A program made the position numbers and the translations under genes. From Mustelus asterias (lineage: Eukaryota), in assembly GCF_964213995.1 (NCBI RefSeq), contig NW_027590189.1, positions 682,001 through 746,000 on the forward strand: 64,000 nt of DNA, given 5' to 3'. Within the stretch, counting starts at the first letter, position 1; each line of letters begins with the position of its first letter. The notes under the pieces are model-generated. The model was not told where the DNA came from. It did no database searches and saw only the letters and a program-made list of their open reading frames with translations. This document shows, piece by piece, positions 6,116-55,060 of the stretch.

Positions 6116-6221
6116 TCTTTGAACCTGCAAAGGACTCACTCATGCCAACTCTGAGCTTCCTGTTAGCCAGTCAGAAACTATCCAGACCAGTATTCTATCC
6201 CCTATCTGTGATGGTCGGAGA

Positions 6222-6386
6222 AAGAAGTTTAACAACACCAGGTTAAAGTCCAATAGGTTTATTTGGTAGCAAAAGCCACACTTTTGGTGTGGCTTTTGCT
6301 ACCAAATAAACCTGTTGGACTTTAACCTGGTGTTGTTAAACTTCTTACTGTGTTTACCCCAGTCCAACGCCGGCATCTCCACATCA
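6222..6386. mobile_element. Penelope-like element terminal remnant forming a 60-bp inverted repeat
   Basis: Arms 6222-6281 and 6287-6346 (one mismatch, 5-nt loop); same tail as 26590-26640; flanked by ATGGT(C/A)GGAGAAA at 6211 and 6386. Confidence 0.8.
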
Positions 6387-6499
6387 TGGTAGGAGAAATA
6401 CATTGATACTTCTGATTATGCTATCCATATGTGAACAGAATCTCACCTTCACTTCTCCAGATTTAGAGAAAGATTATCTGATACTGGGTCTCTAATGGC

Positions 6500-6850
6500 A
6501 GCAGGATTACCCACAGTCCCGTGCGCCTCGGAAAGCGCTCTACATCGGCGGGTTGTGCGTGTGGCTGGCGCATGCTCGGAGGGAGCAGGTCTCTTTGAGG
6601 TGATTTGTGGGGAGAAGCCGGAAGTGGCAGAAGTGAGTGGAGAATGTTCACTGTAAACCCCGCCCCTTCGAGACTGACCTTTCACCTGGCACCTCACAAT
6701 GCCCGGGGACTGATTGACGGCAGCTCCGGACCAATAGAAACAGAGGGGGGTGAACGGCTGGTCCTCAAACCAATCGGAGTGAATGAGGGGGCGGGGCTGT
6801 AACTGAAGCATGCGCAGTGCGGGTGTTGAGCTGCAAGACCTCTTCAGAAA
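6500..6850 (+). promoter_or_regulatory. CpG-rich promoter module upstream of ZNF-B
   Basis: ETS site CCGGAAGTG, two CCAAT boxes, GC boxes, NRF1-like GCATGCGCAG; module shared with 26698, 44330 and 55013. Confidence 0.75.
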
Positions 6851-6953
6851 TTCCATCCTGTCCTTCCAGTGAAAAGTTTCCTCAACTCCTTTTACAGGGA
6901 GTGAGAAAGGGAGGATTTACAGACGGGAAAGTCAGAGCAAACATCACATCAGG

Positions 6954-7282
6954 TTAGAATAGAATCATAAAATCCGACTGTGCAGAAAGAGGCCATTCGG
7001 CCCATCGAGTCTGCACCAACCACAATCCTCCCCAAGGCCATATCCTCATAACCCCACGTGTTTACCCTCCCTAATCCCCCTGACAACAAGGGATAATTGA
7101 GCATGGCCAATCCACCTAACCTGCATATCTTTGGACTGTGGGAGGAAACCGGAGCACCCGGAGGAAACCCACGCAGACACAGGGTACAAACTCCACAAAG
7201 ACAGTGACCCAAGCTGAGAATTGAACCCCGGTCCCTGGCGCTGTGAGGCAGCAGTGCTAACCACTGTGCCACAGTGCTGCCC
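6954..7282 (-). mobile_element. HE1-type V-SINE
   Basis: Full-length reverse copy with CR1-type tail. Confidence 0.92.
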
Positions 7283-7443
7283 ACAAAGTTTAAATGAGTT
7301 TCCACCCTGCTGAGGCACCAGCAGATTCACGTGGGGAGAGGCCATACATCGACTCCGTATGTGGCAAGGGATTCACTCAGTCCTCGGGACTTTGCACACA
7401 CACCAGGGAATTCTCACTGTGGAGAAAGCATTCAGCAGCTGGT
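7283..7443 (+). repeat. Local duplicate of ZNF-B segment ~7939-8085
   Basis: acaaagtttaaatg...cactgtggagaa matches 7939-8085. Confidence 0.85.
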
Positions 7444-7737
7444 TCTGACAGTCAGTCTTCATCAGGACCTGAATATCATTGGTCTTGAATGTGGAAGGAG
7501 AAATGTTTGTTCTGCCCATGGGGAAAGATTTCGAACATCAGTGTGACTGGAAAAGTGCTAAGACACACACACATCCCTGTGAGAGTGTTCCAGTGAACTG
7601 ACCATGGAAAGCTTTAACCAGTTACAGTCTGAAAAAAACACCACAGCATTCACAGCAAAGAGAAACTGTACTCGTGTGTGTGAATGAGGCTTCAACTGAT
7701 CATCAAACCAAGAGAGAGACACAGGGACACTGGCACC

Positions 7738-8404
7738 ATGGAGAAAACGTGGAAATGTGGGGACTGTGGGAAGGGATTCAATTATCCATCCCAGCTGGAA
7801 ATTCATTGACGCAGCCACACTGGGGAGAGACTGTTCACCTGCTCAGTATGAAGAAAATTATTCACTCAGACAACCAAACTCATTTTACACCAGCGAATCC
7901 ACACTGAGGACAGGCCATTCAGCTGCACTCAATGTGGAACAAAGTTTAAATGCACTTCCACCCTGCTGAGGCACCAGCAGATTCACAGTGGGGAGAGACC
8001 ATACACCTGCTCTCTATGTGGCAAGGGATTCACTCAGTCTTCGGGACTTTGCACACATCAGAGAATTCACACTGTGGAGAAGCTGTACTTCCTGTGGAAA
8101 GAGGTTCAGGCAGTCATCTGAGCTCAATGAACATCAGCAAATTCACACTGGGGAGAGGCCATTCATCTGCTCTGTGTGTGGGAAGGGATTCACTCAGTTA
8201 TCCCACCTTCTCAGACACCAGCGAGTTCACACTGAGGAGAAACTATTCAACTGCACTTCCTGTGGAAAGAGGTTAAGGCAGTCATCTGACCTCAAAGCAC
8301 ATCAGCGAGTTCACAGTGGGGAGAGGCCATTCATGTGCTCTGAGTGTGGAAAGGCATTCACACGGTCATCCCACCTGCTGACACACCAGCACATTCATAA
8401 GTGA
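7738..8404 (+). pseudogene. C2H2 zinc-finger pseudogene ZNF-B
   Basis: ACCATGGAGAAA start, TGA at 7807 in finger 1, frameshift near 8060-8080; four terminal fingers ending HK*. Confidence 0.85.
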
Positions 8405-8749
8405 ATCCAGAGGTTAGATTCCGCTGTTATTGTTGCTGTTCCTGGACTGATAGTCTGACAATATTTGGTTTGTTTCTGTTGATATCAACAAACCACATAA
8501 CAGTCTGGAGTTTAATATTCTGGAGATGTCATTGACCTTCGGGGCTGCAGTGCCGCTTTTTAAATGCACCATCTGTGATCTTCACACATAATTCAAGAAC
8601 TCTCAACAGGAACTTGTTCACAATAAAATTATGAACTTTTCCATCAATGCTTAATTGATCTCTGATGCAAAATCTACAATTCAGTGTCTGAGAGGTTCCA
8701 CTGATTTCTATCTCCAATTAGAAAGGGTTGTTAATTCTTCAGGTGAAAA

Positions 8750-9555
8750 GAACCAGAGAAAAAAATGCAAATTGTCTTAAAACTGCACAAGCAACTGCTC
8801 ACCCATTTTTAATAAAGATTAAAAATCCTGCTAAAAGAAGCAGGGTGATGACGAAGAGTACATGAGGCTCTTGGACAGAGTAGCGCAAAGTGTGGAATGT
8901 GTGAAAAGTATCGGAGGCTCCCATTACATCTTTCCTTTAGCTCATGAGGAAGTTACCGTGGGTCTAAAGGTACAAGACAAAGACAAGAAATATTTTTATT
9001 CAGAACCTTAAAGACATGGTAACTCGACTTAGTCTTTCTCCAATAATACGCTTAAAGTTTTAAAGTTTATTTATTAGTCACAAGTAAGGCTTACATTAAC
9101 ACTGCAATGAAGTTACTGTGAAAGTCCCCCAGTTGCCACAGTCTGGCACCTGTTCGGGTTACCGCACCTAACCAACATGTCTTTAAGAATGTGGGAGTAA
9201 AACAGAGCACCCGGAGGAAACCCACGCAGACACAGGGAGAATGTGCAAACTCCACACAGACAGTGACCCAAGCCGGGAATCGAACCCAGGCCATTGGCAC
9301 TGTGAATCAGCAGTATTAACCATTGTGCTACCGTGTCGCCCCATGTCAAGGACAAAAGGGTGATTCGAGCCAAAGTCATGGAGAAATAGATAGGGACTGG
9401 ACCTGGGGCACCAGCTAAGTTTCTGACTGATAATGGAGGGGAATTTGTTAATGATGAGTTTGGAGACGTGTGTGAAAACATGAGTATTCTGGTCATGAAC
9501 ACGGCAACTGAAAATCCTTTCAGTGATGGGCTCTGAAAGGAATCACGCGATAATC
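8750..9555 (+). mobile_element. LTR retrotransposon (Copia-like) integrase remnant, interrupted by a SINE
   Basis: Translates to KLHKQ.AHP..CGMCEKY (HHCC zinc domain) and KFLTDNGGEFVNDEF...NTATENPFSDGL..RNH (integrase core) with stops/frameshifts. Confidence 0.65.
9053..9341 (-). mobile_element. HE1-head SINE variant with a different 3' tail ending (taaactt)n
   Basis: V-SINE head and core joined to a tail shared with 37617-37815. Confidence 0.8.
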
Positions 9556-10134
9556 GATGAAATGCTGCAGAAAATCTCAGCTGATCAACCAAACTACAAG
9601 TTGATAACTGCACCGGCCTGGACGATTCAGGGAAAGAATTCACTTCAGATGGTTGGAGGGTAGAATCCCTGTCAATTGGTCCATGGCAGAAATCCCTAAT
9701 TACCCTCTGTGCCGGGCGATGGACTTCCTGCTTTATTCGGGATACAATTTGTTCCATTTTTAATCATCAATTATCAGATTGTTTCATGAAAAGAAGTGCT
9801 TAAATTGAGAAATTAAGTGGGGATCCGAGAAGAGGGTGTTTGTCGTGTAACACTTTGTACAAAATAAGGAAAATCATATTTTGTCTTTGATTCATTGTGA
9901 AATATGTTGCTGTGTGTTGTGATGACACCAGTCAGGATTGTTAACGTTTGAGAAATTCAAATAGCCAGTCATTAACAAAGAATTATGCTGCAAGATTCCA
10001 CATTTTTAAACAAGACCAAAATTTATTTATAAAACAATATTAAAAACCAGCACTTTAGTTTATAAAGATTTATGGTATGAACCCAGTTCTACATTTTAAA
10101 TCTTGCCACCAACCAGAGTTCCCTTGTACTTAAT

Positions 10135-10890
10135 ATAGTCACAGAGGTTTACAGCATGGAAACAGACCCTTCGGCCCAACTTGTCCATAACCGCCCTCTT
10201 TTTTAAAAACTCCGAAGCTAGTCCCAATTGCCCGCATTTGGCCCATCTCTCTCTATACCCATCTTACCCATGTAACTGTCTAAATGCTTTTTAAAAGACA
10301 AAGTTTCCCGCCTCTACTACTACCTCTGGCAGCTTGTTCCAGACACTCACCACCCTCTGTGTGAAAAAATTGCCCCTCTGGAAACTTCTGTATCTCTCCC
10401 CTCTCACCTTAAACCTATGCCCTCCAGTTTTAGACACCCCGACCTTTGGGAAAAGATATTGACTATCTAGCTGATCTATGCCCCTCATTATTTTATAGAC
10501 CTCCATAAGATCACCTTTCAGCCTTCTACACTCCAGAGAAAAAAGTCCCAGTCTATCCAGCCTCTCCTTATAACTCAATCCATCAAGTCCTGGTAGCATC
10601 CTAGTAAATCTTTTCTGCACTCTTTCTAGTTTAATAATGTTCTTTCTATAATGTACACAGTTCTGGTCACCCTATTCCAAGTGTGGCCTTATCAATGTCT
10701 TGTACAACTTCAACAAGACGTCCCAACTCCTGTATTCAATGTTCTGACCGATGAAACCAAGCATGCTGAATGCCTTCTTCACCACTCTGTCCACCTGTGA
10801 CTCCACTTTCAAGGAGCTATGAACATGTACCCCTAGATCTCTCTTTTTTATAACTCTCCCCAACGCCCTACCATTAACTGAGTAAGTCCT
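10135..10890 (-). mobile_element. CR1-type LINE 3' portion
   Basis: ORFs 10291..10620 and 10672..10911 encode the CR1 ORF2 C-terminus. Confidence 0.9.
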
Positions 10891-11639
10891 GCTAATATCT
10901 TTAAGGTTCATTCACTTCTGTTCCTGGGACCATCCTGAAGATATGCCAAAGCTCCCAGAATTCAATTTAATTATCCTCAGTTTTCCAGATATTCTCCAAG
11001 CTCCAAGATCTTACAGGGGAGCTGCTATTGTTTTTTGGCTAAAAAAAAAGTCAACCTTTCCATTGAGATCTCAAAACTGTGGACTCCTCAGTTTAAGCAT
11101 GGGTTTCACTGCCTTCTTGTTGAGGGATTTAAACATTGGGAACACCCCTGGTTCCTAATGACCCTCTAGGCTTCTAGTCTCACAGCTGGTTCACAGCTCC
11201 TGGTGCCACAGTTCCTGCTGATTGACCAAGCTGCCTGCAAACCTCCCTGTGAGGCAAGGAAAAAGTCATGAGGGGTCATTCATTGTTTACGTGTCCTCAC
11301 CATCAGCTCTGAATTGTTGGATCAACAAAGGCTGCTTCTTAACTCTAATTAACACAGGCCTGTTTCCGATACATTTACATCAGAGCTGTGTTTACCAGTT
11401 TGTCAACAAATGTTTCCATGTCTCTTCATTTAAAAGAATTCCAATCTCCGACCTATTTTCCAAAACATATGAATGATGAAACTAGATAGTTGCAATAGCT
11501 GGCAGGAGCACAATGGGCTGAATGACCTCTGTCTGTGCTCTTTGAGCCTCATGCATTGAAAGGCAGAGGCTTGTCTTCAATTGTGGATGACATTAAAGAA
11601 AGCAGCGTCTCCTCTTCTCTCTATGTTTAGTTTAATACA

Positions 11640-12900
11640 AATCTCTTCTGGAAGTGGCAGATAGAATTTAACAAGAAGTGTGACGGATGTGATTTGGCAG
11701 AAGGGACAGGGAGAGGCAATATAGACTGAATGACAAGTTCTAAAGAATGAGCAGGGACAGAGGGAGCTGGGGATTCATGTGCAGAGCTCATTGAAGGTTG
11801 CAGAGCTGTCAGGAGAAAAATCAGCAAAACAAATGGGATCTTGGGCTTCAGATATAAAGATATTGATTACAAAGGCGGCAAAAGTATGCTGAATGTTTAT
11901 AAAACTCTGGTGAGGCCACAACTAGAGTTTTGTGTCCAGTTTTGGTCACTGCACTTTAGGATGTGAGGGTCATTGAGAGGGTGCAGAGGAGATTTACCAG
12001 AATGGTTCCGGGGTTGAGGAATTGCAGAGTTGTTAAGGGCGTTGTCTAGGGCGGCACGGTAGCACAGTGGTTAGCACTGCTGCTTCACAGCTCCAGGGTC
12101 CTGGGTTCGATTCCTGGCTCGGGTCACTGTCTGTGTGGAGTTTGCACATTCTCCTCGTGTCTGCGTGGGTTTCCTCCGGGTGCTCCGGTTTCCTCCCACA
12201 GTCCAAAGATGTGCGGGTTAGGTTGATTGGCCAGGTTAAAAATTGCCCCTTAGAGTCCTGAGATGCGTAGGTTAGAGGGATTAGTGGGTAAATATGTGGG
12301 GGTAGGGCCTGGGTGGGATTGTGGTCGGTGCAGACTCAATGGGTCGAATGGCCTCCTTCTGCACTGTAGGGTTTCTATGATTTCTATTCTATGATTAAGG
12401 GGGAGGAGGAGGCTATTTGGCCCATTGCATCTGCACCAGCTCTCCAAAGGAGCATTATGGCTTGGTGCCATTCCCCTGAACCCAAGCATTTTGTTTCTAT
12501 TGTAGCTACAAGGTTAGGTTGGAGAAAGTGAGCTTGTTCTTTCTGGAGAAAAGGGGGTTGCAGGGTGATTTGATGGAGGTGCAGAAGTTTATGTTTAGAC
12601 AAGGTGAACAAAGAAAACCTGTTCCTATTAGCCGATGGTGCAAGGAGGAGGGGGCACAGATTGAAGATTTTGGTCAAGAAATGTAAAGGGGCTGTGAGGA
12701 AGAATATTTTTACACTGCGAGTGGCAATGACCTGGAACACTCTGCCCATGAGGGGAATGGAAGGAGAGAAAACAAACATTTTGGGAATGAAGTTGTGGGA
12801 AATAAACTTCCAGGGTTACGGGGATATATTGGGACAATGGGACTGACTGGTTTGCTTTCCAGAGCTGGCACGGATTCAGCAGGTGAATGGCCTCATTTCT
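11640..12900 (+). mobile_element. Degraded CR1 LINE with nested SINE
   Basis: YKTLVRPQLE..VQFWS..VQRRFTRMVPG motifs at ~11900-12010, resuming at ~12510. Confidence 0.65.
12049..12395 (+). mobile_element. HE1-type V-SINE (young, CpG-rich)
   Basis: gggcggcacggtagcacagtggttagc head, B box gggttcgattcc, (ttctatga) tail. Confidence 0.93.
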
Positions 12901-13009
12901 TACACTAATGACTCTCTGATCTAAGGAGAGAAATTTCAAGATCTCCAGTTCCTCATCCCTGGTGCCATTCTTATAAATCCACTCTCCAGCTCTCAAAGAA
13001 CTTTTCTTC

Positions 13010-13550
13010 AATGGCCCATATACAGGGTTCCATTCTAGAGGGATAGAATTGAAAAGCAGGGAGGTTCTGTTCAACTTGTTAGAACCAGGGTTAGACTACA
13101 CTGGGAGCATTGTCAACATTCATAATCTCCATTTAGAAAAGTGTAATAGAGGCACTGGTGAAGGAGCAACAAAGATTCACAAGAATAATCCCAGAACTGA
13201 GAGCATTTAACCCTCAGGAAAGGTTAGGGCCGCTTTTCTCCAGAAAAGAGAAAACTGAAGGGTGACCTGATGGAAGTCTTTAAGATTATGAAGAGGCTCA
13301 ATAATCCAATAGGGATTTCAGTGAGAAACCTCTTTACCAGCGAGTGGTGAGAATGTGGAACTCACTACCACAGTTGAGGTGAACAGCATGAACACATTGA
13401 AGGGGAAGCTAGATACATACATGAGGGAGAGAGGAATAGAAGGATATGCTGATGGGGGGAGATGAAGAGGGGTGGGTGGAGGCTCATGTGGAGCATAAAT
13501 ACTGACACAGACCTATTGGGCCGACTGGCCTGGCCCTGTGCTGTAGGCTC
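13010..13550 (+). mobile_element. Degraded CR1 LINE 3' portion
   Basis: LKGDLMEVFKIM motif and CR1 3' UTR gggccgactggcc..ctgtgctgta. Confidence 0.65.
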
Positions 13551-15223: not shown

Positions 15224-15224
15224 T

Positions 15225-15470: not shown

Positions 15471-15499
15471 CTAGACCAGAATTTGTTGAAAATACCGAG

Positions 15500-20962: not shown

Positions 20963-21036
20963 CACCCTCCCAATTCTCCTGAAGGTGCTGATTGAGGCTG
21001 ATCGACAGATCCATGTTCACTGCTTCCTGTCCTGGA

Positions 21037-21134
21037 TTACTCACCTGAAGAAGGGGCTTGCAGCTCCGAAAGCTTGTGTGGCTTTTGTTACCAAATAAAC
21101 CTGTTGGACTTTAACCTGGTGTTGTTAAACTTCA
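21037..21134 (+). mobile_element. ~98-bp Penelope-derived mini-insert with 12-bp TSD
   Basis: TCCTGTCCTGGA at 21025-21036 and 21135-21146; content is a hammerhead motif plus the Penelope tail. Confidence 0.85.
21042..21078 (+). ncRNA. Minimal type I hammerhead ribozyme motif
   Basis: CAC-CUGAAGA-A-GGGGCU(UGC)AGCUCC-GAAA-GCUU-GUG. Confidence 0.7.
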
Positions 21135-21190
21135 TCCTGTCCTGGACACAGTTGAAAATCTCCATGCAGGCGGCCAGACAGATATACTCA

Positions 21191-21483: not shown

Positions 21484-22382
21484 TCAGTTGCTGCAAGTCC
21501 CCAATTTTTCCCAGAATGCAAAAAGAAAGTGTTTTACTCACAGATGTTGGCCAGAGGAGGAAGTTTGAATCTATCTGAAGCTCAATCTTTGTTCAGAGAG
21601 AGGAGGAGGATGAGCAGCAGTTTGCTGGACAAACAATGGAGGAACATTCGTGCAGCCATTGACACAAGGCCCGGACTCTGACTGGCTGGAGGACCAGGAC
21701 TGATCTGGTCCTCCACGCATTGCCATTGGTCAATCTGCCGCATGTAGACAATGGGGGGGGCGGAACCCGAGCCCACGTGGGGGTGGGCGGTGCTTTGACC
21801 GCCAGCCGCGCTGAGCTGGTGTCCAATCCGCAGTGTGCGGCTTCTGTAACCAGTGATATTGCTGCCAATGGGACAGTGTGTGCTGGGAACGCCCCTCTGA
21901 GTCATTGTGACGGCACAATAGAGCCCTGCCTCAATCAGCCAACAGCAATCACTCTGCTCCGCGCCAACATCCTTGGATGGATCCCAGTGCGCAGGCCCGG
22001 ACGCGCGGACGTGGGAGCCCCGCCACCACCCGTTGTGCCCCCTCCCCCGGCACCTCCACGAGCCAAGGTTTCCAGGCACCCGGCCCTGAGGGAGAGGGGA
22101 AACTGCGCATGTGCAGGGGAGAGCCCGCCCCCTGACCGTCAGACTGAGGTGTTGACCAATGGGAAGAATTGGAGGACCGGAAGGATCCCGGTCCTCCAAC
22201 CAATCACAGGACGGGCTTTTTGTGACTGCAAATTGCGCTTCAGACTGACTGAAACTTCCTCCTGTTTGTTTATTTGGTTTGACCTTAAAAAGAGGCCAAC
22301 ATCTGTGAGTAAAACACTTTCTTTTCTCCCCCTTTCCATTTCTTTTCTCACTCTGGGGGAAATTGGGGACTTGCAGCAACTG
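21484..22382. promoter_or_regulatory. Bidirectional CpG-island promoter and non-coding first exons for ZNF-D/ZNF-E
   Basis: CpG-rich with CCAAT and GC boxes; the donor motif GGCCAACATCT|GTGAGTAAAACACTTTC is present on both strands (21541 minus, 22305 plus). Confidence 0.8.
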
Positions 22383-25657: not shown

Positions 25658-26242
25658 GGGTCGTTCACCTGCTCTCAACGTGGGAATGGAATTGCTTACT
25701 CATTCCATCTGCTGAGACACCAGCGAGTTCACAAGTGATTCCAGGGTTTGGATTCTGCTGTTATTGTTTCTGCTCTCACTTATGTCCAGGACTGCATTTT
25801 GTTTATTCTCTCAGTTGGTCAATGGGGAGAGTCAGAGGGTTTCTTGATGCTGGACTGGCCGGTCTCAGCCTCCAGTGGGCTGATGCTCTTTGAGCCTGGA
25901 AGAGCACATTTCTTGTCTTCAAATTTCACAAGGATCACAAGAGTGAAGCACGTTTGTCAGTTCAAAGATATTTCATTCGTAATTCTGTTTGGAACCCCAC
26001 TGAAGTATGTGACATTTCCATGGAGATGGGCTGTGGTACTTATATGGTTCTTTTGTTTAATTTATCTGGGTGTTTCTCACAGAAGAGAACTAAAATATGA
26101 GATCCTGTATCTGAGATGGATTGGGAAACTGCATCAAAAGGTATAATGGGAGATAGGCAATAGCTAATATTTCAGGGATTATTATATGTTGACAAGAGTT
26201 AGCTCAGTTGGCTGGATGGCTTGTTTGTGGAGTGGAGGTTCA

Positions 26243-26643
26243 CGGCAGTGCAGAGTCGCTGAGCAGAGACTGATAGCCAGGTTCCGCACACATGAGGACG
26301 GCCTCAACCAGGATATTGGGTTCATGTCACACTATCTGTAACCCCCACAACTTGCCTGGATGTGCAAAATCTCACTGGCTGTCCTGTCTGGAGACAATAC
26401 ACATCTCTTTAACCTGTGCTTAATGCTCCCTCCACTCACATTGTCTGTACCTTTAAGGCTTGATTAGTTGTAAAGACTCGCATTCCAATTATTATTCATG
26501 TAAATTGAGTTTGTGTCTTTGTGCCCTGTTTGTGATCAGAACTCCCACCCACCTGATGAAGGAACAGCCTGTTCCGAAAGCTAGTGGCTTTTGCTACCAA
26601 ATAAACCTGTTGGACTTTAACCTGGTGTTGTGAGACTTCTTAA
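26243..26643 (+). mobile_element. Penelope-like element 3' fragment (GIY-YIG C-terminus + 3' UTR)
   Basis: 26243-26341 = RQCRVAEQRLIARFRTHEDGLNQDIGFMSHYL*, with the E..I..F.T...GLN signature; UTR matches 54298-54573. Confidence 0.85.
26549..26587 (+). ncRNA. Minimal type I hammerhead ribozyme motif
   Basis: CCAC-CUGAUGA-A-GGAACA(GCC)UGUUCC-GAAA-GCUA-GUGG; stems I and II fully paired. Confidence 0.82.
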
Positions 26644-26689
26644 CAATAATCAGCAAGTCAGCCTGAGTCTGTGGCCACTCTCACCATCT

Positions 26690-27265
26690 GAAATCGTCAC
26701 AATGTCTGGCTGATTGACGGCAGCTTCGGACCAATAGAGAGAGAGGGGAGGGGAGGGGCGGGAAGACCGCGCGGGAGCGGCTGGTCCTCCAAGCAATGGG
26801 AGTGAATGAGGGGCGGGGCCGGGAGTGAATGAGGGGCGGGGCCGGGCTGGGAGTGAAGCATGCGCAGTGTGGTTAATGGCGGTTGGCGAGGTGATTGTTA
26901 TGATCCACAATATCTAGGACAAAATAGTGGATGGGAGGGAGCGATGGATCCAGCTACCGGGCGGAGATGTTTCCTAAACATGTTGTGTAACCGCAATCCT
27001 CGAAAAAGAGCTTCCAGGTTCCTCCAGCTGCACTGAGTGGGTCTCCAGCTCCGAGTGATCGGTCCGGGTTAACGGCCGCCATCTTTATTGGGGCCAATGT
27101 GCAACGGGGATAATGTGGAACAGGGCTGCAACGTGGCCGCCATCTTTGTAGGGGGCAAGTTGTCGAGTGGGTGGAGCTTGTTTCCCATTGTTCAGAATGG
27201 AGACAACTTGTCCATCAAATTGCATCAATCCTCTGAGTCCCAATGTCTTATTGATGAGGCAGAGC
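26690..27265 (+). promoter_or_regulatory. CpG-rich promoter module (probably for ZNF-F at 33767)
   Basis: CCAAT, several GGGGCGGGG, NRF1-like site, two YY1 GCCGCCATCTT; homologous to 44330-44895 upstream of the paralog ZNF-H. Confidence 0.72.
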
Positions 27266-40087: not shown

Positions 40088-41014
40088 TCACTTGTGAACT
40101 CGCTGGTGTCTAACCAGGTTGTTTGACTGAGCAAATCCCTTCCCACACACACAGCAGGTAAACAACTTCTCCCCAGTGTGAACTCGCTGGTGTCTCAGAA
40201 AGTTGGATGAATTGGCGAATCTTTTCCCACATTTGGAGCAGGTGAACGGCCTCTCCCCAGTGTGGGTACGTTGGTGTGACAGCACCTCACGTTTGCTTTT
40301 AAAACATTTTTCACAATCAGAACATTTAAAAGGTCTCTGATCAGTGTGAACCAGTTTGTGAACAGCAAGGTGGGATAATCGAGAGAAATTCTTGCCACAC
40401 ATGGAGCAGGCGTATGGTCATTCCCCAGTGTGAATTCACTGGTGTATCAGAAAGTCAGATGAATGAATGAATCCCTTCCCACATTCGGAACAGGTGAATG
40501 GCCTGTCTCCAGTGTGGGTACGTTGGTGTGTCAGCATCTGGTACCTGCTTTTAAAGCTCTTCTCACAGTCAGAACAGCGAAAAGATCTCTGATCAGAGTG
40601 AACCAGTTGGTGGGCAGTGAGGTGGGTCGACCGAGAGAATCCCTTCCCACACTGAGAGCAGTTGAATGGTCTCTCTCTGGTGTGAACTCGCTGGTGTGTC
40701 CGCAGGTGGGCTGACTGAGTGAATTCCCTCCCACATGCGGTGCAGGTGAATGGTCTCTCCCCAGTGTGAACTCGCTGGTGTACCCTAAGATCAGATGAAT
40801 TAATGAATCCCTTCCCACATGTGGAGCAAGTGAACGGTCTCTCCTCAGTGTGAATGTGCTGGTGTCTCAGAAGGTCAGTTGACCGTGCGAATCCCTTCCC
40901 ACACGTGGAGCAGGGGAATGGTTTCTCCCCAGTGTGAGTGTGTTGATGATATTCCAGCCGTGACTGGTATTTGAATTTCTTCCCACAGTCCTCACATTTC
41001 CACAGTTTCTCCAT
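40088..41014 (-). pseudogene. C2H2 zinc-finger ZNF-G, 11-finger frame broken by two in-frame TGA codons
   Basis: ORFs 40436..41014 and 40088..40402 are in frame; TGA at 40436-38 and 40418-20; may still encode a truncated 6-finger protein. Confidence 0.8.
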
Positions 41015-43620: not shown

Positions 43621-43967
43621 CACAGATCTATCAATGTGCTCGGACAAAGAACAATGCAGTACAGGAAAAGGCCCTTCGGCACACCAAGCCTGCACCGATA
43701 CGCTGTTTCCATCTCTCTGTTCGCTTCCTGTTCATGCATCTGTCAAGCAGATAATTTCATGAATTACTTGTGACAACATGAATCTGAACCACCCTGACTG
43801 ACCAGACAGAATCACAGACGTTAACCTTGTGTCCAGAACTGATTTTCTCAGAGGAGCCTCAGTCACCATCATTGAGACTAATTTTGAATTCGAGATTTTA
43901 TTGATTGAATGGATTTCAAGCCCTGTCCCCATAACAATGTGCTGTCTCTCTGTATTACTTATGCAGT

Positions 43968-44208
43968 CATGATGTGGAGATGCCGGCGTTGGACTGGGGT
44001 GAACACAGTAAGAAGTCTCACAACACCAGGTTAAAGTCCAACAGGTTTATTTGGTAGCAAAAGCCACACAAGCTTTCAGAGCGCTCTGTGCCCTGTTTGA
44101 GAGCAGATTTCCACTCCATCTGACGAAGGAGCAGTGCTCCGAAAGCTAATGGTATTTGCTACCAAATAAACCTGTTGGACTTTAACCTGGTGTTGTTAAA
44201 ACTCTTAC
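43968..44208. mobile_element. Penelope-like terminal remnants in inverted arrangement
   Basis: Minus copy 43968-44085 (truncated within the ribozyme) and plus copy 44087-44208. Confidence 0.82.
44116..44152 (+). ncRNA. Minimal type I hammerhead ribozyme motif
   Basis: CCAU-CUGACGA-A-GGAGC(AGU)GCUCC-GAAA-GCUA-AUGG. Confidence 0.82.
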
Positions 44209-44259: not shown

Positions 44260-44900
44260 AAGTGGCGGACAGTGATAGTCGTAAACCCCCCCCCCCCCCC
44301 CGACGACACTGACCTCTCACCTGACACCTCACAATGCCCGGGGACTGATTGACGGCAGCTCCGGTCCAATAGCAGGAAGGGGCGGGGCTGGAGGAGCGAG
44401 CGGCAGCGGCTGGTCCTCCAACCAGACTGAATGAGGGGCGGGGCTGAGTGAAGCATGCGCAGTGTGATTAATGGCGATGGAGAGAGGATTTCTCGGATCC
44501 ACAATCAGAAAAAGTGGGAATGGCGGGCGGAGGCAGCGATGAATCAGGCGGAGGGATTAGAGAGGCTTCGTAATCATGAACAACAAACCTCTGCAAAAAA
44601 AACCGACCGCTATCCGAAGATGGTCCCGGCCGTTTGCACAGAGCAAGGCCGCTGCTTTCTTCCCGCGACAGACCCGGGTTAACTGCCGCCATTTTTATCC
44701 GGGCACTACCAATATGGCGCATGCGCGGTTGCCATCTTTATTAGGAGCAATAGCCCTCTATTAGAAGCGCATGCGCAGCCGCCCTCTTTATGAGGGGCAA
44801 TGATTTTGAAATTCGCCCGAGTGACAGAATGTGAACAACTTGTCCATCAAACTGCTTCGCTCTTTCACTTCCAATTTCTTACTGATGAGGCAGAGCAACG
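44260..44900. promoter_or_regulatory. CpG-island promoter between divergent ZNF-G and ZNF-H
   Basis: Shared CCAAT/GC module; NRF1 palindromes GCGCATGCGC at ~44717 and ~44767; YY1 GCCGCCATTTT. Confidence 0.78.
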
Positions 44901-45532: not shown

Positions 45533-46570
45533 ATGGAAGGAAAAAGCACCGTTCACAGTGGAAATAAATCATACTTGTGTTCTGTGTGTGGACAAGGATT
45601 CAATCGATCATCTGGCCTGTCAAAACATAAATGCAGTCATGATGGGGAGAAGCCGTGGAAATGTGAGGAATGTGGGAAGGGATTCAATTACCCATCCCAG
45701 CTGGAAACTCATCAGCGTGGTCACACCGGGGAGAGGCCGTTCACCTGCTCTGACTGCGGGAAAGGATTCACTAAGTCATCCACCCTGCTGACACACCAGC
45801 GCACACACACTGGGCAGAGGCCATTCACCTGCTCTATGTGTGGGATGGGATTCACTCAATCATCCACACTGCTGACACACCAGCGAATTCACACTGGGGA
45901 GAGGCCTTTCACCTGCTCTGACTGTGGGCAGGGATTCACTCACCAATCCACCCTGCTGACACACCAGCGAGTTCACACTAGGCAGAGACCGTTCACCTGC
46001 TCTGAGTGTGGGAAAGGATTTATTAATTTATCCAACCTGACGACACACCAAAGAAATCACAGTGACGAGAGACCGTTTAAATGTCTGGACTGTGGGAAGT
46101 GTTATAAAACCTCTCAGGAACTGATGTCCCATCAACAAGTTCACACTGACGAGAGACCGTTCAGGTGCTCTCACTGCGGAACTGGGTTCAAGCGATCATC
46201 TCATCTCACCGTTCACCAGCGCACTCACACGGGAGATAGACCGTTCACATGCTCTGAGTGTGGGGAAGGATTCACTCAGTCATACACTCTGCTGAGACAC
46301 CAGCGAGTTCACACTGGAGAGAGACCATTCACCTGCTCCAGGTGTGGGAAGAGATTCACTCAATCATCAGCACTGCTAAGACACCAGCGAGTTCACACTG
46401 GGGAGAGGCTGTTCATCTGTAATGATTGTGGGAAGAGATTCACTCAGTCATCCAACCTGCTGACACACCAGCGAGTTCACACCGGGGAGAGACCATTCAC
46501 GTGTTCTGTGTGTGGGATGGGATTTACTCAGACATCCAACCTGCTGAGACACCAGCGAATTCACAATTAA
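45533..46570 (+). CDS. C2H2 zinc-finger protein ZNF-H, 12 fingers (close paralog of ZNF-F)
   Basis: ATG at 45533 ([10 protein letters not shown]); intact to TAA 46570; acceptor ttcacag|G at 45426. Confidence 0.92.
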
Positions 46571-47303: not shown

Positions 47304-47757
47304 TGTTTTGGAAGAAGATTGTAAAGTACCTTTTTGAGAGCGGAGTTTGGAAACACTCGTGTGACAATAATTTCAGGGGAAATTTGAGACGAAATCCACA
47401 GAGGATCGATTGAGTTGCATCTGCCACTTAACTTCAGAGTGGGGGTTATCTGATTACAGTCAACCTGTGGGTTTAAAGGGACTGTGTGTTTACTGAGAAC
47501 ATTATAGCATAAGAAATTTTCTACCTGTGTTATCCTTGAAATCTGTGTACATTTGTGAAGGTAAGTGGGAGTGAAGAAGTCTTGTCTTATGATCAAACTC
47601 TTCGTATTTAATAAATATTTTATTGTTAAAATCTAATTGGCAGTCCTGTGACTCTGTTCCTCTATGTTTTCAAAGAAAATAAAAGTTATGGTCTTTTGAG
47701 TCAGGGTTCCATTCTGGGATCTTCCTGTCCAGTTATAACATCAACTGGGATTGTAAC
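47304..47757 (+). mobile_element. Possible solo LTR
   Basis: TGT...GTAACA ends with internal AATAAA; abuts the L2 remnant. Confidence 0.35.
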
Positions 47758-47759
47758 AC

Positions 47760-47950
47760 TCACCATCTTGACTTTGAAATATATCGCTGTTCCTTCGCTG
47801 TCACTGGGTCAGAATCCTGGAACTCCCTCCCTGACAGCACTATGGGGTACCTACACCACAGGGATTGCAGCAGTTCTAGAAGGCAGCTCACCAACAGCTT
47901 CCCTAGGCCAATTAGGGATGGGCAATAAATGCTGGCCTAGCCGGTGACGC
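47760..47950 (+). mobile_element. CR1/L2-type LINE 3' end (tail shared with DeuSINE)
   Basis: SWNSLP motif and caattagggatgggcaataaatgctggcc tail. Confidence 0.65.
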
Positions 47951-48472
47951 CACGTTTTATTATTCAGGAAAGGCTGTGGGCTTTGGCCTCTGTAAATGAA
48001 TAAAAAATAAGGTAATATCTGTTTTTAGCCTATTGAATTTCAATGACAGCATTGCCTTCTGACTTGTTCTTATGTCCTGGGCCTATTACACAGTTATGCT
48101 TGAAGGAATAGAGCCAGCCTGACTCCACTGTGTTACCTCTGACACTGTTTCAATCCCCAAGCTGCTACAGACATCTTTATTAGCTCAAACCAACACATCA
48201 TTCTCACAGTTTGAGGCCAGTTCTCCTGCACAATTTAACTCATTTTGCAGACATTGCTAATTCCGGCAAGGCTGCGACTTGACTACAATGACCAGCATGC
48301 ACTCCATTTTGAACCCACAATGCAGTTCAGTGCAGTTCTTCAGATATCCTCCATCTGGGTTCTTCTATCACCCTCGATGTTCCATGTTACCGCCATGAGA
48401 CAGTCTCCACACAGGGTCCCACCGCAACCCATCTACACTTCATATAAAAGAAATAAGCAAGTTACAACTGAT

Positions 48473-48793
48473 TGGGCCAGCATGGTGGCACAGTTGTTAC
48501 CACTGCTGCCTCACAGCACCAGGGACCCGGGTTCAATTCCCGGCTTGGGTTACTGTCTGTGTGGAGTTTGCACATTCTCCCCGTGTCTGCGTGCATTTCC
48601 TCCGGGTGCTCTGGTTTCCTCCCACAGTCCAAAGGTGTGTGGATTGCATGGATTGGCCATGCTAAATTACCCCTTAGTGTCAGGGGGACTAACTATTGTA
48701 AATGCATGGGGTTATGGGGATAGGGCCTGAGTGGGATTGTGGTCAGATTGTGGGAGACTTGATGGCCTCCTTCTGCACTGTAGGATTCTATGA
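48473..48793 (+). mobile_element. HE1-type V-SINE
   Basis: Head, V core and tail present. Confidence 0.9.
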
Positions 48794-49170
48794 TTGCACA
48801 TTTAGATAATACATTGGTTTTCAATAGGGCCATTCTGTTAAAAGCAGGTTGTTACGCTGAAGCTTTATAAAGTAGTGTTTAAACCACTAGAAGACCAAGG
48901 AAATTTGGGATGTCAGCTACAACTCTCACCAACTTTTACAGATGCACCACAGAAAGCATTTTTTCTGGTTGTATCACAGCTTGGTATGGCTCTTGCTCCT
49001 TCAGGAAGGATGGGATGGTCCTTGAGAAGGTGCAGAGGAGACTTATCAGAATGGTTCCAGCAATGAAGAATTTTAACTCCAAGCTCAGGTTCGAGAAGCT
49101 GGAGTTGTTCTACTTGGAACGGAGGAGGTGGAGGGGAGATCTGATAGAGGTGAACACCATTATGGCAGGT

Positions 49171-50390
49171 TTGATTTGATTTGATTTATTATCGTCCCAT
49201 GTATTACCATAGTGAAAAGTATTGTTTCTTGCGCGCTATACAGACAAAGCATACTGTTCATAGGGAAGGAAACGAGAGAGTGCAGAATGTAGTGTTACAG
49301 TCATAGCTAAGGTGTGGTGAAAGATCAACTTAATGCAAGGTAGGTCCATTCAAAAGACTGACAGCAGCAGGAAAGAAGCTGTTCTTGAGTCGGTTGGTAC
49401 GTGATCTCAGACTTTTGTATCTTTTTCCCAAGGGAAGAAGGTGAAAGAGAGAATGATCGGGGTACGTGGGGTCCTTAATTATGCTGGCTGCTTTGCCGAG
49501 GCAGCGGGAAGTGTAGTCAGAGTCAATGGATGGGAGACTGGTTTGCGTGATGGATTTCATGACCTTTTGCAGTTCCTTGCGGTCTTGGTTAGAGCAGGAG
49601 CCATACCAAGCTGTGATACAACCAGAAAAAATGCTTTCTGTGGTGCATCTGTAAAAGTTGGTGAGAGTCGTAGCTGACATCCCAAATTTCCTTAGTCTTC
49701 TAAGAAAGTAGAGGAATTGGTGGGCTTCCTTAACTAAGTCAATTACTCGGGGCCATAGGTTTAATGTGCGAGGGGCAAGGCTTAAAGGAGATGTACAAGG
49801 CAGATTTTTTACACAGAGAGTAGTGGGTGCCTGGAACTCGTTGCCGGGGGAGGGAGTGGAAGCAGATACGGTAGTGACTTCTAAGGGGCATCTTGACAAG
49901 TACATGAATAGGATGGGAATAGAGTGATATGGTCCCCGGAAGGGTAGAGGGTTTAGTTAAGTCGGGCAGCATGGTCGGTGCAGGCTTGAAGGGCCAAAGG
50001 GCCTGTTCGTGCACTATAATTTTCTTTGTTCTTTGTTCTATAGTGTCAGCATGGGGGTACCAGGCCAGGTTGTTGGTGAACTGGACACTTGAAGCTCTCG
50101 ACCCTTTCTACTTCATCTCCATTGATGTAGACAGGGGCATGTTCTCCTCTATGCTTCCTGAAATTGATGACAATCTCCTTCATTTTGTTGACATTGAGGG
50201 AGAGATTATCGTTGCCGCACCAGTTCACCAGATTCTCTATCTCATTCCTGTACTCTGTCTCGTCATTGTTTGAGACCCGACCCACTACGGTGTCATCAGC
50301 AAACTTGAAAATCAAGTTGGAGGGGAATTTGGCCACACAGTCATAGGTGTATAAGGAGTATAGAAGGGGGCTGAGAACACAGCCTTGTGG
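49171..50390 (-). mobile_element. Rex1/Babar LINE with nested plus-strand CR1 3' end (~49736-50040)
   Basis: PQGCVLSPLLYSLYT..KFADDTVVG (50046..50447) and LTNFYRCTTES..KNSFFP (49330..). Confidence 0.88.
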
Positions 50391-50650
50391 GTTTAGATCA
50401 AGTGAAGAAGGAAATTGGTCAGAATCTACAGAGACTGCTGGAGGCAAGGCTGCTGATAAACGTAACCTTTAATTGCACATTCTTCGAACTATGTACAATA
50501 CAAGATCAGCACGAGGCTTCACAGAGAACCATCTCTCAGCACGCTCTTGTCATCTGATCATACATCACTGTGTAGAATATTTACAAATTTAACATGAACC
50601 CTTTACACTGCACCAAGTCTCTAGTCAGCCCTCCTAACATCCCCTTCTTT
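50387..50650 (-). mobile_element. LTR remnant with polypurine tract
   Basis: Minus strand reads AAAGAAGGGG-A-TGTTAGG at 50650-50633 (PPT followed by a TG LTR start). Confidence 0.45.
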
Positions 50651-51169
50651 GACTCAGTGTCAGTTAATGTTTCTGAGATTCACTTTGGGACACTCTCCTA
50701 CATTAACGGTCTGATGGAAATGAAAGTTATTTTTAAATCACATTGTAACAGACTGGGGAAGTCAAGATTAAAACAATATCTGGGTAAATGGAGTTAGGTC
50801 ACAGATCAGCCCTGACCTCACTGAATGAGAGAACAGGCTCGAGGGATAAATGACCTCCTCCTGCTCCTGGTAAACTTGGACTCAGACACCAGCTGATGAA
50901 TGGAAAGTGATGGGAGACCTGGGGAGAAGAGACTTCATCAGAAACCAGCACTGGAGCAGAGTTAGAGAGTGGGAGAATCCTGGGGAGAAACTACACAGGA
51001 ACTGGAGGAGGTTGTTCAGCCCTTCCAGTCTGCTCTGTCATTCAGTTAGACTCTGGCTGATCAATCAGTTTATCATCAAGATTTATTTGATTCTATTCTG
51101 TAGATTAAGCTGCAGCTCAGATTTATGGGAAATGAAAGTCAGTAGAAACAAACTCCAACTCTCACAATG

Positions 51170-52460
51170 TGAACATGTGAATTAGGAGCAGGAGAAGGCC
51201 ACTCGGCCCCTCGAGCCTGCTCCACTATTCAATAGGATCCTGGCTGATCTGATTGTGGTCTGAACTCCACTTTCCTTCTTACCCCTCGTACCCTTTGGCT
51301 CTCTTGTCAATCAAGAATCTATTAAATTCAGACTTCAGAATATTCAGTGAGCGAGCCTCCACCACTCTCTGTGAAAGAGAATTCCACACTGTAACAACCC
51401 TCTGAGAGAAAAGGTTTCTCCTCATCCCAGTCTTAAATGGGAGACCCCTTATTTTTAAACTGTGCCTCTAGTTCTCCTCTCTCTACAATCAACATCTGTC
51501 AAGTCCCCTCTGAATTTTATATGTTTCAATCAGATCCTCTCTCATTCTTCTAAACCCCAATAGATACAGGCCGAACATGTCCAACTTTTCCTTGTATGAT
51601 AACTCCCTCATCCCACGAATCAGTCAAGTAAACCTTCTCTGAACTACTTCTCACACAAGTCCTCTCTTACGTAAGGAGACCAAAACTATACACAGTACTC
51701 TTGATGTGGTCTCACCAATACCCTGAACAAATGCAGCAAAACATCCCTGCAATAAACAATAATTCATTTACCTTTCTAATCATTTGCTGTGTCCACACAC
51801 TAACGTTTCCTGATTACAGTACCAGGACACCCAGATCCCTCTGTACCTGCAATCGCTCTCTTTAAATAATCAACTGCTTTTCCATCCTTCCTGTCCAAAT
51901 GGACAAGTTCACATTATCCAAAAATCTTGTTCCAGCTGCCAACTTCTAACCCACTCATTCACTATGTCGCTTTGCAGGCTTGTTATGGTCATTCACATCT
52001 CATTTTTCTACCTACCTTTGTGTTATCAGCAAATTTTGATCCTGTCATCCACGTCATGAAAATAGTTTGTCAATAGTTGAGGCCCCAGCACTGATCCCTG
52101 TGGCACTCCACAAGCTACATCTTGCCATCCCAAAAATTACTCCTTTCTCCCTCCTCTCTGTTTCCCATTAGCTAATCAATCCTCTATCCATGCTAATACA
52201 AAGAACCGATGTGGATGGGATGCTAATATGCCTTATGCTACGAATTCTTATTTAGTGTGGTAAACTTTGATGTGTCAAATGCCTGCTGGAAATCTAAATA
52301 CACCACATCCACAGGTTCCACTTTATCCACATTGCTTGTAACTTCCTCAAAGAAATCCAATAAATCAATTAAAGGTGATTTCCCTTGCACAAAACCATGT
52401 TGACTCTGCCTGATTGTACAGAGATTATCTATGTGTTCCACCCTCCCAGCCTCCTTAATA
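51170..52460 (-). mobile_element. Old CR1 LINE
   Basis: QHGFVQGKS..VDVVYLDFQQAFD (52238..52441); 3' UTR at ~51180. Confidence 0.8.
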
Positions 52461-52476
52461 ACAGAATGAACATGAT

Positions 52477-53787
52477 TCAGTCCTGCATGGGGTTAGCAGC
52501 AACAGCAGAATCCAATCCCTGCAGTGACTTGTGAACTTGCTGGTGTCTCAGCAGATTGGCTGACCGAGCAAATCTCTTCCCACATACGGAGCAGGTGAAC
52601 GATCTCTCTCCTGTGTGAATCTGCTGGTGTCTCAGCAGGTGGGATGACTGAGTGAACCTTTTCCCACACATGGAGCAGGTGAATGATCTCTCCCCAGTGT
52701 GAATTTGCTGGTGTCTCAGCAGGTCCTTCGTGCTTTTAAAACTTTTCTCACAGTCAGAACACTTAAAAGGTCTCTGATCAGTGTGGACCAGTTGATGTGC
52801 AATGAGCTGGGGTGGCTGAGTGAATCGTTTCCCACATGTGGAGCAAGCGAAGGGTTTCTCCCCAGTGTGAATTCGCTCGTGTATCAGAAGGTGGGGCGAA
52901 TCAGTGAATCCCTTCCCACACACAGAGCAAATAAATGTCTTCTCCCCGGTGTGAACTCGCTGGTGTCTCAGACAGTGGGATGAATGGGTGAATCCCAGCC
53001 CACACACCGAGCAGGTGAACGGTTTCTCCCCAGTGTGAACTCGCTGGTGTGTCACCAAATCCTGTTTACTTTTAAAGCTCTTCTCACAGTCAGAACACTG
53101 AAATGGTCTCTTATCAGAGTGAACTCGCTGGTGTGTTTGCAGCTGGGATAAACGTCCGAATCTCCTCTCACACACGGAGCAGGTGAATGGCTTCTCCCCA
53201 GTGTGAGTGCGCTGATGGACTTGTAAATCATTTTTACTTTTAAATCTCTTCTCACAGTCAGAACATTGAAATGGTCTCTGATCAGTGTGAACAAGATGGT
53301 GTGTCAGAAGGTGGGATGACTGAGTGAATCCCTTCCCACACACTGAGCAGGTGAACGGTCTCACCGCCATGTGAGTGCGCTGGTGTCTCAGGAGGTCCTT
53401 TGTGCTTTTAAAGCTTTTCTCACATTCAGAACACTGAAACAGTCTCTGATCGGAGTGAACCTGCCGGTGAATCAGGAGGCTTGATATAGCATGACATCCC
53501 CTCCCACATTCGAGGCAGGCGAATGGCCTCTCACCAGTGTGAACACGCCGGTGTGTATAGAGGCTGGATGAGTAAGCAAATCCTTTCCCACACTCAGAGC
53601 AGGTGAACGGCCTCTCTCCAGTGTGAATGCGACGATGAATATCCAATTCGGACGGGTAATTGAATCCCCTCCCACAGTCCCCACATTTCAATGGTTTCTC
53701 TGTGGAGCGGGTATCCTCGTGTGACTCCAGGTTGGATGATGAGTTGAAGCCACGTTTACACAGAATATGAGTCGGGTCACTACTCAC
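52477..53787 (-). CDS. C2H2 zinc-finger ORF ZNF-I, 14 fingers; start codon uncertain; C-terminal extension
   Basis: 436-codon open frame with no ATG before finger 1; the family stop TGA reads TCA, adding SLQGLDSAVAANPMQD. Confidence 0.7.
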   Translation of the reverse strand: MSSDPTHILCKRGFNSSSNLESHEDTRSTEKPLKCGDCGRGFNYPSELDIHRRIHTGERPFTCSECGKGFAYSSSLYTHRRVHTGERPFACLECGRGCHAISSLLIHRQVHSDQRLFQCSECEKSFKSTKDLLRHQRTHMAVRPFTCSVCGKGFTQSSHLLTHHLVHTDQRPFQCSDCEKRFKSKNDLQVHQRTHTGEKPFTCSVCERRFGRLSQLQTHQRVHSDKRPFQCSDCEKSFKSKQDLVTHQRVHTGEKPFTCSVCGLGFTHSSHCLRHQRVHTGEKTFICSVCGKGFTDSPHLLIHERIHTGEKPFACSTCGKRFTQPPQLIAHQLVHTDQRPFKCSDCEKSFKSTKDLLRHQQIHTGERSFTCSMCGKRFTQSSHLLRHQQIHTGERSFTCSVCGKRFARSANLLRHQQVHKSLQGLDSAVAANPMQD

Positions 53788-54288
53788 TGAGAATGATGTG
53801 ATTATTTTTCAGACTTTTTAAACCACTTTCCACATTCAGCACATTGGAAACTCTCAGGTGTGTGTGTGTCTAGGTGCTTTTTCAGTCACACTGATGTTTG
53901 AAATCTTTGCCCGCAGACAGAATAAACATTTCTCCTTCTGGAGACAAAGGCTGACGATATTCAGTTTCTGATGAATCAAATCACTGAAACAGATCTTGAT
54001 TTGAAGTTTGTTTTGAGTTTCACATCTGTAAATCCTGCTTCATAATACCCTGCAAAAACAGTTTACAAATACCATCACTGTCAGTGCAGGATAGAAATTC
54101 TGAACAGACAATTCATGGTTTCTCTGGAACATATTTTCCTCTCTTGTTCCCCCAAATCTATAAATCCCCGTCCCACACACTCTACCTCCTCCCCTGGACT
54201 GAAATCCAAACCCATCTCAACATCTCCACCATTTCTTCCCTCCACTCCCAGTTTTCCCCCTCCCTCTCCTCTGTCTGGGTTCAGTTCT

Positions 54289-54573
54289 TGATGTGGAAAT
54301 CTCACTAACTGTCCTGGCTGGAGACAGTACACATCTCTTTAACCTGTGCTTAACCCTCTCTCCACTCACATTGTCTGTACCTTTAAGACTTGATTGCCTG
54401 TAAAGACTCACATTCCAACCATTATCTTGTAAATTGAGTTTGTGTCAATATATATGCCCCGTTTATGAACACAAGTCCGACTCACCTGATGAAGGAGCAG
54501 TGATCCGAAAGCGAGTGGCTTTTGCTACCAAATAAACCTGTTGGTCTTTAACCTGGCGTTGTGAGACTTCTTA
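54289..54573 (+). mobile_element. Penelope-like 3' UTR insert with 14-bp TSD
   Basis: CTGGGTTCAGTTCT at 54275-54288 and 54574-54587; matches 26367-26643. Confidence 0.85.
54482..54518 (+). ncRNA. Degenerate hammerhead ribozyme motif (probably inactive)
   Basis: CUGAUGA..GAAA core intact; stem II mismatch and cleavage triplet CUA changed to CGA. Confidence 0.55.
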
Positions 54574-55060
54574 CTGGGTTCAGTTCTCCAGCTGCTGTCT
54601 GCAGACTGACAATAAAACCAATGGCTCTTATTGGGGGTGTTGGGGCCTCCAGCGGGTGTTTGTGAATCCTCCCCGCCCACCTCCCAGGGTTTCCTTCCTT
54701 CCCAGAGATCAGAGTCCTCATTGATTTGAGGCCAAAGTCTAACCTCTTATTTATTGTCCCCCTCCCCCATCCTCTGATGTGAACCATCCTCCAGTGGCTG
54801 AGCCAGGATGGGGCCGTTAACCTGGGCCTGTTCCCGGGAGGGAGGGAGGGAGAAGCCCCGCAGCTGCAAACCAGGGAGCTGACAATGATTCTGAAGGGTT
54901 TGCGGATCCACAAAGTGTTTCCAAATCCTCCCAGCCACCGCCTAACGCTGACTCCGCTTCTCCGGGACAAACAAGCGCCAAGGACAGCAATGACACTGCG
55001 CATGCTCCACATCACAATGCCCGGGGACTGATTGACGGCAGCTCCGGACCAATAGGAAGA

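Follow-up and report, generated by a model that had tools for sequence, protein, structure and literature searches.

Endonuclease-positive (EN+) Penelope-like elements (PLEs) of the Neptune type are described as having one open reading frame (ORF) for a reverse transcriptase (RT) with a C-terminal GIY-YIG endonuclease, hammerhead-bearing pseudo-long terminal repeats (pLTRs), an optional tail of ~40 bp and inverted 5' arms, and a CX2-5CxxC linker between RT and endonuclease marks Neptune and Nematis off from Penelope and Poseidon (PMC8557442). An element of the same build, with a CX4CxxC linker, is represented by five inserts in the stretch of DNA analysed here (the window: 64 kb of contig NW_027590189.1 in the 3.68-Gb assembly of the shark Mustelus asterias), which contains C2H2 zinc-finger (ZNF) exons, many of them placed head-to-head around CpG-rich modules. 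The likeness to the Neptune type is one of features, and the two differ in the choice of site: Neptune and Naiad elements are described as microsatellite-biased (PMC8557442), whereas the sites found here form a non-repetitive dyad. It seems probable that the five inserts belong to an abundant PLE which inserts in CTG-N16/17-CAG dyads and is about threefold denser beside promoter-type motifs, by way of a GIY-YIG dimer and of DNA accessibility in the germ line.

Several other described systems share part of this picture. In the anole Poseidon element PAc, two preferred 3' ends likewise define the tail, both strands of the target are nicked and extended, and a dimer is predicted. However, PAc prefers AT-rich DNA (ATT) and belongs to the Penelope/Poseidon elements without the linker zinc finger, and the available part of that account reports no dyad, fixed stagger or promoter bias (PMC11167929). 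Tails together with inverted pLTRs, as seen here, are described in PMC11167929 and PMC3846280. The ribozyme motif itself does not differ from the minimal type I hammerheads of metazoan PLEs, with their conserved core, an extra base after position 9, a long helix II, a short helix I, a palindromic 15.2-16.2 pair and no helix III, which occur mostly as solo copies from truncated PLEs; a promoter-side position, however, is absent from the accessible part of that description (PMC4209133). Animal non-LTR retrozymes are also PLE-related, hammerhead-bearing and non-autonomous, but they form tandem repeats and are depleted from introns and exons, whereas the copies described here are solo or inverted pLTR fragments with target site duplications (TSDs) (10.64898/2026.07.22.740005). 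Head-to-tail tandem monomers, a retrozyme feature, were not found in the window, where all copies are solo or inverted.

Each of the five inserts is a copy, either truncated or hairpin-shaped, of a single Penelope-like retrotransposon that is very abundant. A 35-mer from the end of the element has 154,065 exact matches, evenly split between the strands, and random DNA contained 12 PLE loci in twenty 10-kb stretches (200 kb), which extrapolates to ~200,000 copies; judged by this background, the window, with 5 inserts per 64 kb, is nothing unusual. A preliminary description, made from the letters of the window, had counted five Penelope-derived pieces and none elsewhere in the 64 kb. A BLAST search of the pieces against the window returns the same five and no sixth, the only other notable match (25 bp at 45631) lying in a ZNF exon stretch common to a paralogue.

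In the longer natural copies an RT domain (PF00078) is followed by GIY-YIG (PF01541) and then by the same pLTR. The 592-aa frame of locus L319 contains RVT_1 and a VVYLIRC..YIG stretch, although Pfam listed no GIY-YIG for it, while in L318 PF01541 scores above the cut-off; both abut the pLTR. The CX4CxxC linker is found at aa 454 of L319 and aa 445 of L320. A 928-aa open frame at L318 was rejected as the full ORF, since it joins satellite sequence to the 3' end of the PLE. The 3' ends of the element cluster at two points ~40 bp apart and many copies are hairpins. RT with a C-terminal GIY-YIG, a pLTR with an optional tail, inverted 5' arms and a short TSD, all features of EN+ PLEs, are present. 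Hairpins of this kind are frequent across the genome; transcribed in either direction, they would yield double-stranded RNA, from which small RNAs or editing substrates might arise.

The sites of insertion sit within an inverted CTG-N16/17-CAG dyad around a TSD of mostly 12-13 bp. A TSD of at least 10 bp was found at 52 of the 123 chromosome loci, and its length was 12 or 13 bp in 32 of these; the sequences strongly enriched around it are CTG, two bases before, and CAG, two bases after. After removal of one 22-bp satellite call and seven repeats of a host site, a set of 44 loci was left for counting, among which 18 have a perfect dyad and 34 a dyad with at most one mismatch, against a background of 0.35% and 4.5%, respectively. 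Before this removal, perfect dyads number 18 at spacer 16 and six at spacer 17 (0.09 expected in each case), and none of the remaining spacers between 10 and 23 has more than two. Of the 22 sites in a separate set from ZNF clusters, 10 have a perfect dyad and 15 a dyad with at most one mismatch. Inserts 2 and 5 of the window have perfect dyads, insert 1 has one mismatch, and inserts 3 and 4 each retain one half-site at the right offset. Since the dyad lies outside the TSD, away from the element, it is not an alignment artefact. Microhomology of the target with the end of the element was considered as the determinant of the site and dropped, given this position of the dyad and the priming without homology reported in PMC11167929. 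The TSD-bearing sites are non-repetitive, and no microsatellite insertion bias is seen among them.

Such an arrangement would be expected if a GIY-YIG dimer, as seems likely, nicked both strands 12-13 bases apart. Each subunit would cut 2 nt 5' of CAG on its own strand, leaving 3' overhangs of 12-13 nt and thus a TSD of 12-13 bp; priming from one nick would give simple copies, and priming from both would give hairpin copies. A symmetric site with a fixed stagger would thereby explain both the length of the TSD and the abundance of hairpins. A literature search of titles and the beginnings of abstracts, with subscription papers, Repbase and Dfam lying outside it, returned no dyad target or promoter bias of a PLE and no PLE hammerheads of sharks. 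As far as this search goes, the palindromic target with its fixed stagger is new, and so is the re-insertion at the same base.

This re-insertion was found by comparing the ZNF promoter modules. The module core has 487 exact copies, of which the first 100 listed are all on the ZNF-rich contigs C71, C87, C88 and C89, and 90 of these 100, chosen regardless of inserts, served as the module sample. It is the mark of a head-to-head C2H2 ZNF family that is very large and was amplified recently, with paralogues 96-99% identical, and the module looks bidirectional. A PLE copy lies within 500 bp to the left of the core in 20/90 modules, in all cases at the site of insert 5, and to the right in 14/90; a position to the left of each module, as noted in the preliminary description, is thus not a general rule. 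The insert-5 site could be recognised by its anchor in 45/90 modules, 19 of them filled and 26 empty, the twentieth filled module (L221) having a deletion in the anchor. The filled sites fall into eight structures (the insert-5 type, L153, L158, L175, L201 with L206, L212, L219 and L141). All eight have the same end base within one position and the same orientation, and they differ in 3' end, 5' inversion, 5' end, TSD length and overall length (~140-900 bp). Where two types overlap by at least 187 bp they are 81-89% alike, compared with 96% within the insert-5 type and mostly 97-99% in the host flank, and each of the 26 empty alleles has a single copy of the target. The simplest reading is that of independent insertion, the insert-5 base having been struck about eight separate times. 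Two of the hot-spot copies (L201, L218) contain SINEs (short interspersed nuclear elements), one of them just past the ribozyme core.

Another possibility considered was that the copies go back to one ancestral insertion, which was duplicated along with the promoter unit and afterwards altered by rearrangement or by conversion from other members of the family. Inserts 3 and 5 do have near-identical paralogues together with their flanks, and gene conversion could have homogenised the flanks, whose tree is a star. For the window set, however, this explanation is refuted by the flanks, which are unrelated among the five inserts, and by the different offsets; the hot-spot copies vary in the length of the TSD, in the 3' end, which is short or tailed, in 5' inversion and in subfamily, and 26 alleles are empty. 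Such descent is therefore scarcely credible as a general account, and the independence of the five inserts asserted in the preliminary description stands up to comparison: empty paralogues exist for site 2, site 4 (L148, L209) and site 5, and none were seen for sites 1 and 3 among the loci compared. The insert-2 site is occupied in paralogue L135 by a different insert facing the opposite way. Co-duplication did occur later, when inserts 3 and 5 were copied with their flanks into many paralogues: insert 3 and its flanks recur, at 98-99%, in 4 further contigs, and the filled allele of the insert-5 type has multiplied to 10/20 filled modules.

Recurrence is not confined to promoters. A single site in the RT frame of a LINE (long interspersed nuclear element), which we take to be CR1 from its motif, accounts for 5/51 TSD-bearing chromosome copies (L231, L244, L245, L246, L333) and is empty in L062 and L070; hence recurrence needs no promoter. 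Other LINE sites recur as well (L246 with L275, and L331 with a C87 copy). Recurring PLE sites are also present to the right of the module core, at 130-580 bp (L143, L145, L157, L161, L207, L213, L189), with L213 and L189 carrying different inserts at about one site.

As to promoter proximity, all five pieces had been placed ~50-450 bp to the left of five CpG modules. This holds for inserts 1, 3, 4 and 5, which lie 321, 64, 136 and 454 bp, respectively, from a shared core motif on their right. Only four modules carry this core, however, and for insert 2 the distance is 507 bp to a CpG island and ~950 bp to the diverged module at 22085. The chance of finding five of five within 500 bp is ~2e-8 at background density, and ~2e-3 for four modules at the rate of the 90 other modules. 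Considering the rates in those modules and in contiguous cluster DNA, the window is an extreme instance of an association that is real but weaker.

Outside the ZNF clusters, ordinary-chromosome promoters were represented by promoter-type motifs, with ±1.5 kb taken around each anchor. The ZNF143-type motif gave 55 matches, of which the first 30 were used (29 distinct loci on 14 chromosomes), and the YY1-type motif gave 44, of which the first 18 distinct loci were used. The ZNF143 loci contain 20 PLE loci in 87.6 kb, 3.8-fold over random DNA (p 2e-4), distributed over 15/29 loci. Pooled with the YY1 loci, the count rises to 27 in 141.6 kb, compared with 49 over 800 kb (p 8e-6), or, per locus, 19/47 promoter loci against 10/60 random 3-kb tiles with a PLE (p 0.008). 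The SINE control is flat (0.35 against 0.33 per kb). An enrichment of about threefold is thus observed in the samples taken, and the promoter-proximal targeting put forward in the preliminary description is partly supported; open chromatin, which had been offered as its cause, is likely, judging from fixed copies and motif-defined promoters, while the exact sites are explained by a DNA target motif that had escaped notice. An excess of insertions near transcription starts is known for Drosophila P and maize Mu; these, however, are DNA transposons, whereas here the element is a target-primed retroelement with an excess of ~3-fold, seen in fixed copies only (PMC9977147).

Could the sequence preference account for everything, the dyad and the good sites of the ZNF unit explaining the window, and the chromosome promoter excess being a small-sample effect? 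The LINE site, which has a higher position weight matrix (PWM) score (12.4 vs 8.2), is struck repeatedly too, all 20 left-side copies in the 90 modules are at one site, and neither the contiguous cluster nor the YY1 and NRF1-like sets reach significance singly. Dyad density at promoter loci, on the other hand, is 0.44-0.48 per kb against 0.40, and the target PWM predicts just a 1.1-1.5-fold promoter enrichment, so the excess of ~3-fold is left unexplained by target sequence. At the ZNF143 loci in particular the predicted rate is only 1.1-fold that of random DNA, compared with the 3.8-fold observed at the same repeat fraction. An explanation by sequence preference alone is therefore regarded as unlikely.

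Still less likely is insertion blind to chromatin, followed by differential survival, in which short copies beside promoters are tolerated, less diluted or mildly useful. It would agree with the fact that only fixed copies are seen and with the multiplication of the insert-5-type allele. The SINE control, however, is older than the PLE copies (88-89% identity to nearest copies against 96-98%) and yet shows no enrichment, and repeats make up the same fraction of the ZNF143 loci (0.41) as of random DNA (0.42), which argues against simple dilution; moreover, 26/45 paralogous sites are empty. The reading preferred here is that promoter DNA accessible in the germ line would add a factor of ~3 to the sequence preference. 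Good dyads happen to lie near the core of the ZNF promoter unit, of which there are hundreds of copies; insertions would therefore strike the same sites repeatedly, and some of the filled alleles would then have been multiplied by gene duplication.

Several results weigh against this reading. No TSD was obtained at 71/123 chromosome loci, hence the dyad is measured on a subset only, and the host-flank tree at the hot spot is an unresolved star, being too shallow. Across three contiguous stretches of ZNF cluster beyond the window, 600 kb in all, 5/37 copies lie within 750 bp of a module where 2.2 are expected (p 0.065; SINEs, 6/205). The module-centred data show an excess of PLE over SINE events within 500 bp (12/34 vs 7/87), but it does not hold within 1000 bp (p 0.23) and comes mostly from the one hot spot. 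The YY1 set alone has 7 copies in 54 kb (p 0.09), 4 of the 7 in one locus, and 6/18 of its loci belong to a single CpG-rich repeat that contains no insert, while the NRF1-like anchors have 6 in 45 kb (2.2-fold, p 0.10). The promoters were defined by motifs and not by transcription start sites or ATAC, and 12/29 ZNF143 loci are without a central CpG island. Finally, since only fixed copies are seen, insertion bias and later selection are inseparable. The repeat at the YY1 loci (L338, L339, L341, L342, L352 and L353, on different chromosomes) is the size of a CpG island and alike over 350-800 bp; it is possibly a young element with its own promoter.

The most striking proposal of the preliminary description was that the hammerheads are retained because they cut read-through transcripts entering downstream ZNF promoters. 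Four hammerhead regions do lie on the + strand as it had stated, but the core of insert 5 is mutated and scores as broken; the opposite-strand copy at ~44075 is truncated as described, the minus-strand arm of insert 4 being cut through the core. Judged by a CUGANGA and GAAA core, a helix II of at least 4 bp, a helix I of at least 3 bp, a palindromic NN and UH, inserts 2, 3 and 4 carry an intact minimal PLE hammerhead with a predicted cut site, insert 5 a broken one and insert 1 none. At the gathering score, Rfam gave no match in the window. In minimum free energy folds of the monomer the hammerhead does not appear (z -1.7 to +0.2), as expected in the absence of helix III, and these folds were not used as evidence.

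In favour of retention, three of the four window cores are intact and point at the promoter, and a hand count of independent sites at the ZNF modules gives ~8 facing inward and 2 outward (two-sided p ~0.11). Selection for cleavage should favour intact cores near promoters, however, and this is not what was found: cores are intact in 2/8 hot-spot events, against 13/21 copies at ordinary promoters, 5/7 in random DNA and 18/27 unselected chromosome copies, and in the most amplified allele, the insert-5 type, they are broken in 9/9 copies. The core is missing altogether from insert 1 and from several of the module-side inserts. At ordinary promoters, with the genes' direction not assigned, 10 cores face inward and 11 outward. 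The inward trend at ZNF modules is also expected from selection against sense copies, which for retroelements is established to yield an antisense excess in 5' introns. According to the available part of PMC4209133, a single, solo minimal PLE hammerhead showed no cleavage in vitro; the anole hammerhead cleaves only with PLE protein, is dispensable for insertion in vitro and has no RNA ends mapped to its cut site (PMC11167929). Retention for cleavage of read-through RNA thus seems very improbable, and the hammerhead likely rides in the pLTR as a passenger and decays.

The individual inserts, numbered from left to right, are built as follows. Insert 1 (6222-6388, unstranded) is a hairpin of two PLE 3' ends, with an inverted arm at 6222-6281 and a direct arm with tail at 6287-6388. 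Its target site (6206..6223, + strand) consists of a CTG half-site at 6206-6208, 2 nt and the left copy of a 13-bp TSD; the right copy (6386-6398) is followed by the one-mismatch half-site. The region 6219-6349 is a 131-bp near-perfect palindrome (93%). Insert 2 (21037-21134, +) is a short 5'-truncated pLTR with a predicted cut after 21075, in a perfect dyad (21020..21151, +) formed by CTG at 21020-21022, TSD copies at 21025-21036 and 21135-21146, and CAG at 21149-21151. Insert 3 (26241-26645, +) is a near-complete pLTR with a predicted cut after 26583 and a CAG half-site at 26659-26661. Insert 4 (43968-44208, unstranded) has two arms, an inverted one with tail and truncated core at 43968-44082 and a direct one at 44084-44208 with an intact core and a predicted cut after 44148; its CTG half-site is at 43950-43952 and the right TSD copy is mostly gone. 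Insert 5 (54289-54573, +), at the recurrent site ~450 bp from the promoter core, is a 5'-truncated pLTR whose core is broken by a G at 54513 (the U16.1 position); its perfect dyad (54271..54591, +) consists of CTG at 54271-54273, TSD copies at 54275-54288 and 54574-54587, and CAG at 54589-54591. The three TSDs given in the preliminary description (6211/6386, 21025/21135 and 54275/54574) were recovered exactly, and inserts 3 and 4 have no intact TSD.

The ZNF promoter modules, all on the + strand, are found at 6660..6830 (module 1, CpG-rich, core 6711), 26678..26880 (module 3, core 26711), 44295..44480 (module 4, core 44346) and 54990..55290 (module 5, core 55029). Module 4 lies between divergent ZNF exons at 40094-40996 (-) and 45578-46564 (+), and module 5 between those at 52531-53685 (-) and 56424-58505 (+). 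In the position of module 2 there is an unstranded CpG island (21641..22265) with a diverged module (22085-22265) lacking the shared core motif. The interval 56388-58511 contains a 707-aa open frame with 25 C2H2 fingers of 85-88% internal identity, a recent finger expansion, and several adjacent ZNF exons are frameshifted. For 52400-56480, contigs from four presumed-RNA runs yielded neither splice joints nor ends that could be used.

Site choice and second-strand cutting of PLEs are little known, the described preferences being AT-rich DNA or microsatellites, and a symmetric site with a fixed stagger supplies the in vitro assay that already exists for PLEs with an exactly defined substrate. 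In its fullest form, the picture would be that of a vertebrate PLE whose dimeric GIY-YIG acts on a palindromic site of 22-23 bp and cuts both strands with a constant stagger of 12-13 nt, which primes from either or both ends, homes to open promoters and, by repeated re-invasion of single bases, diversifies the promoters of ZNF genes; we consider the chances of this to be about evenly balanced. The idea of ribozymes as insulators is not borne out. Re-insertion at the same base calls for caution in the use of such inserts as homoplasy-free markers, and ~200,000 copies with a 3-fold promoter bias would provide a steady source of promoter-side variation.

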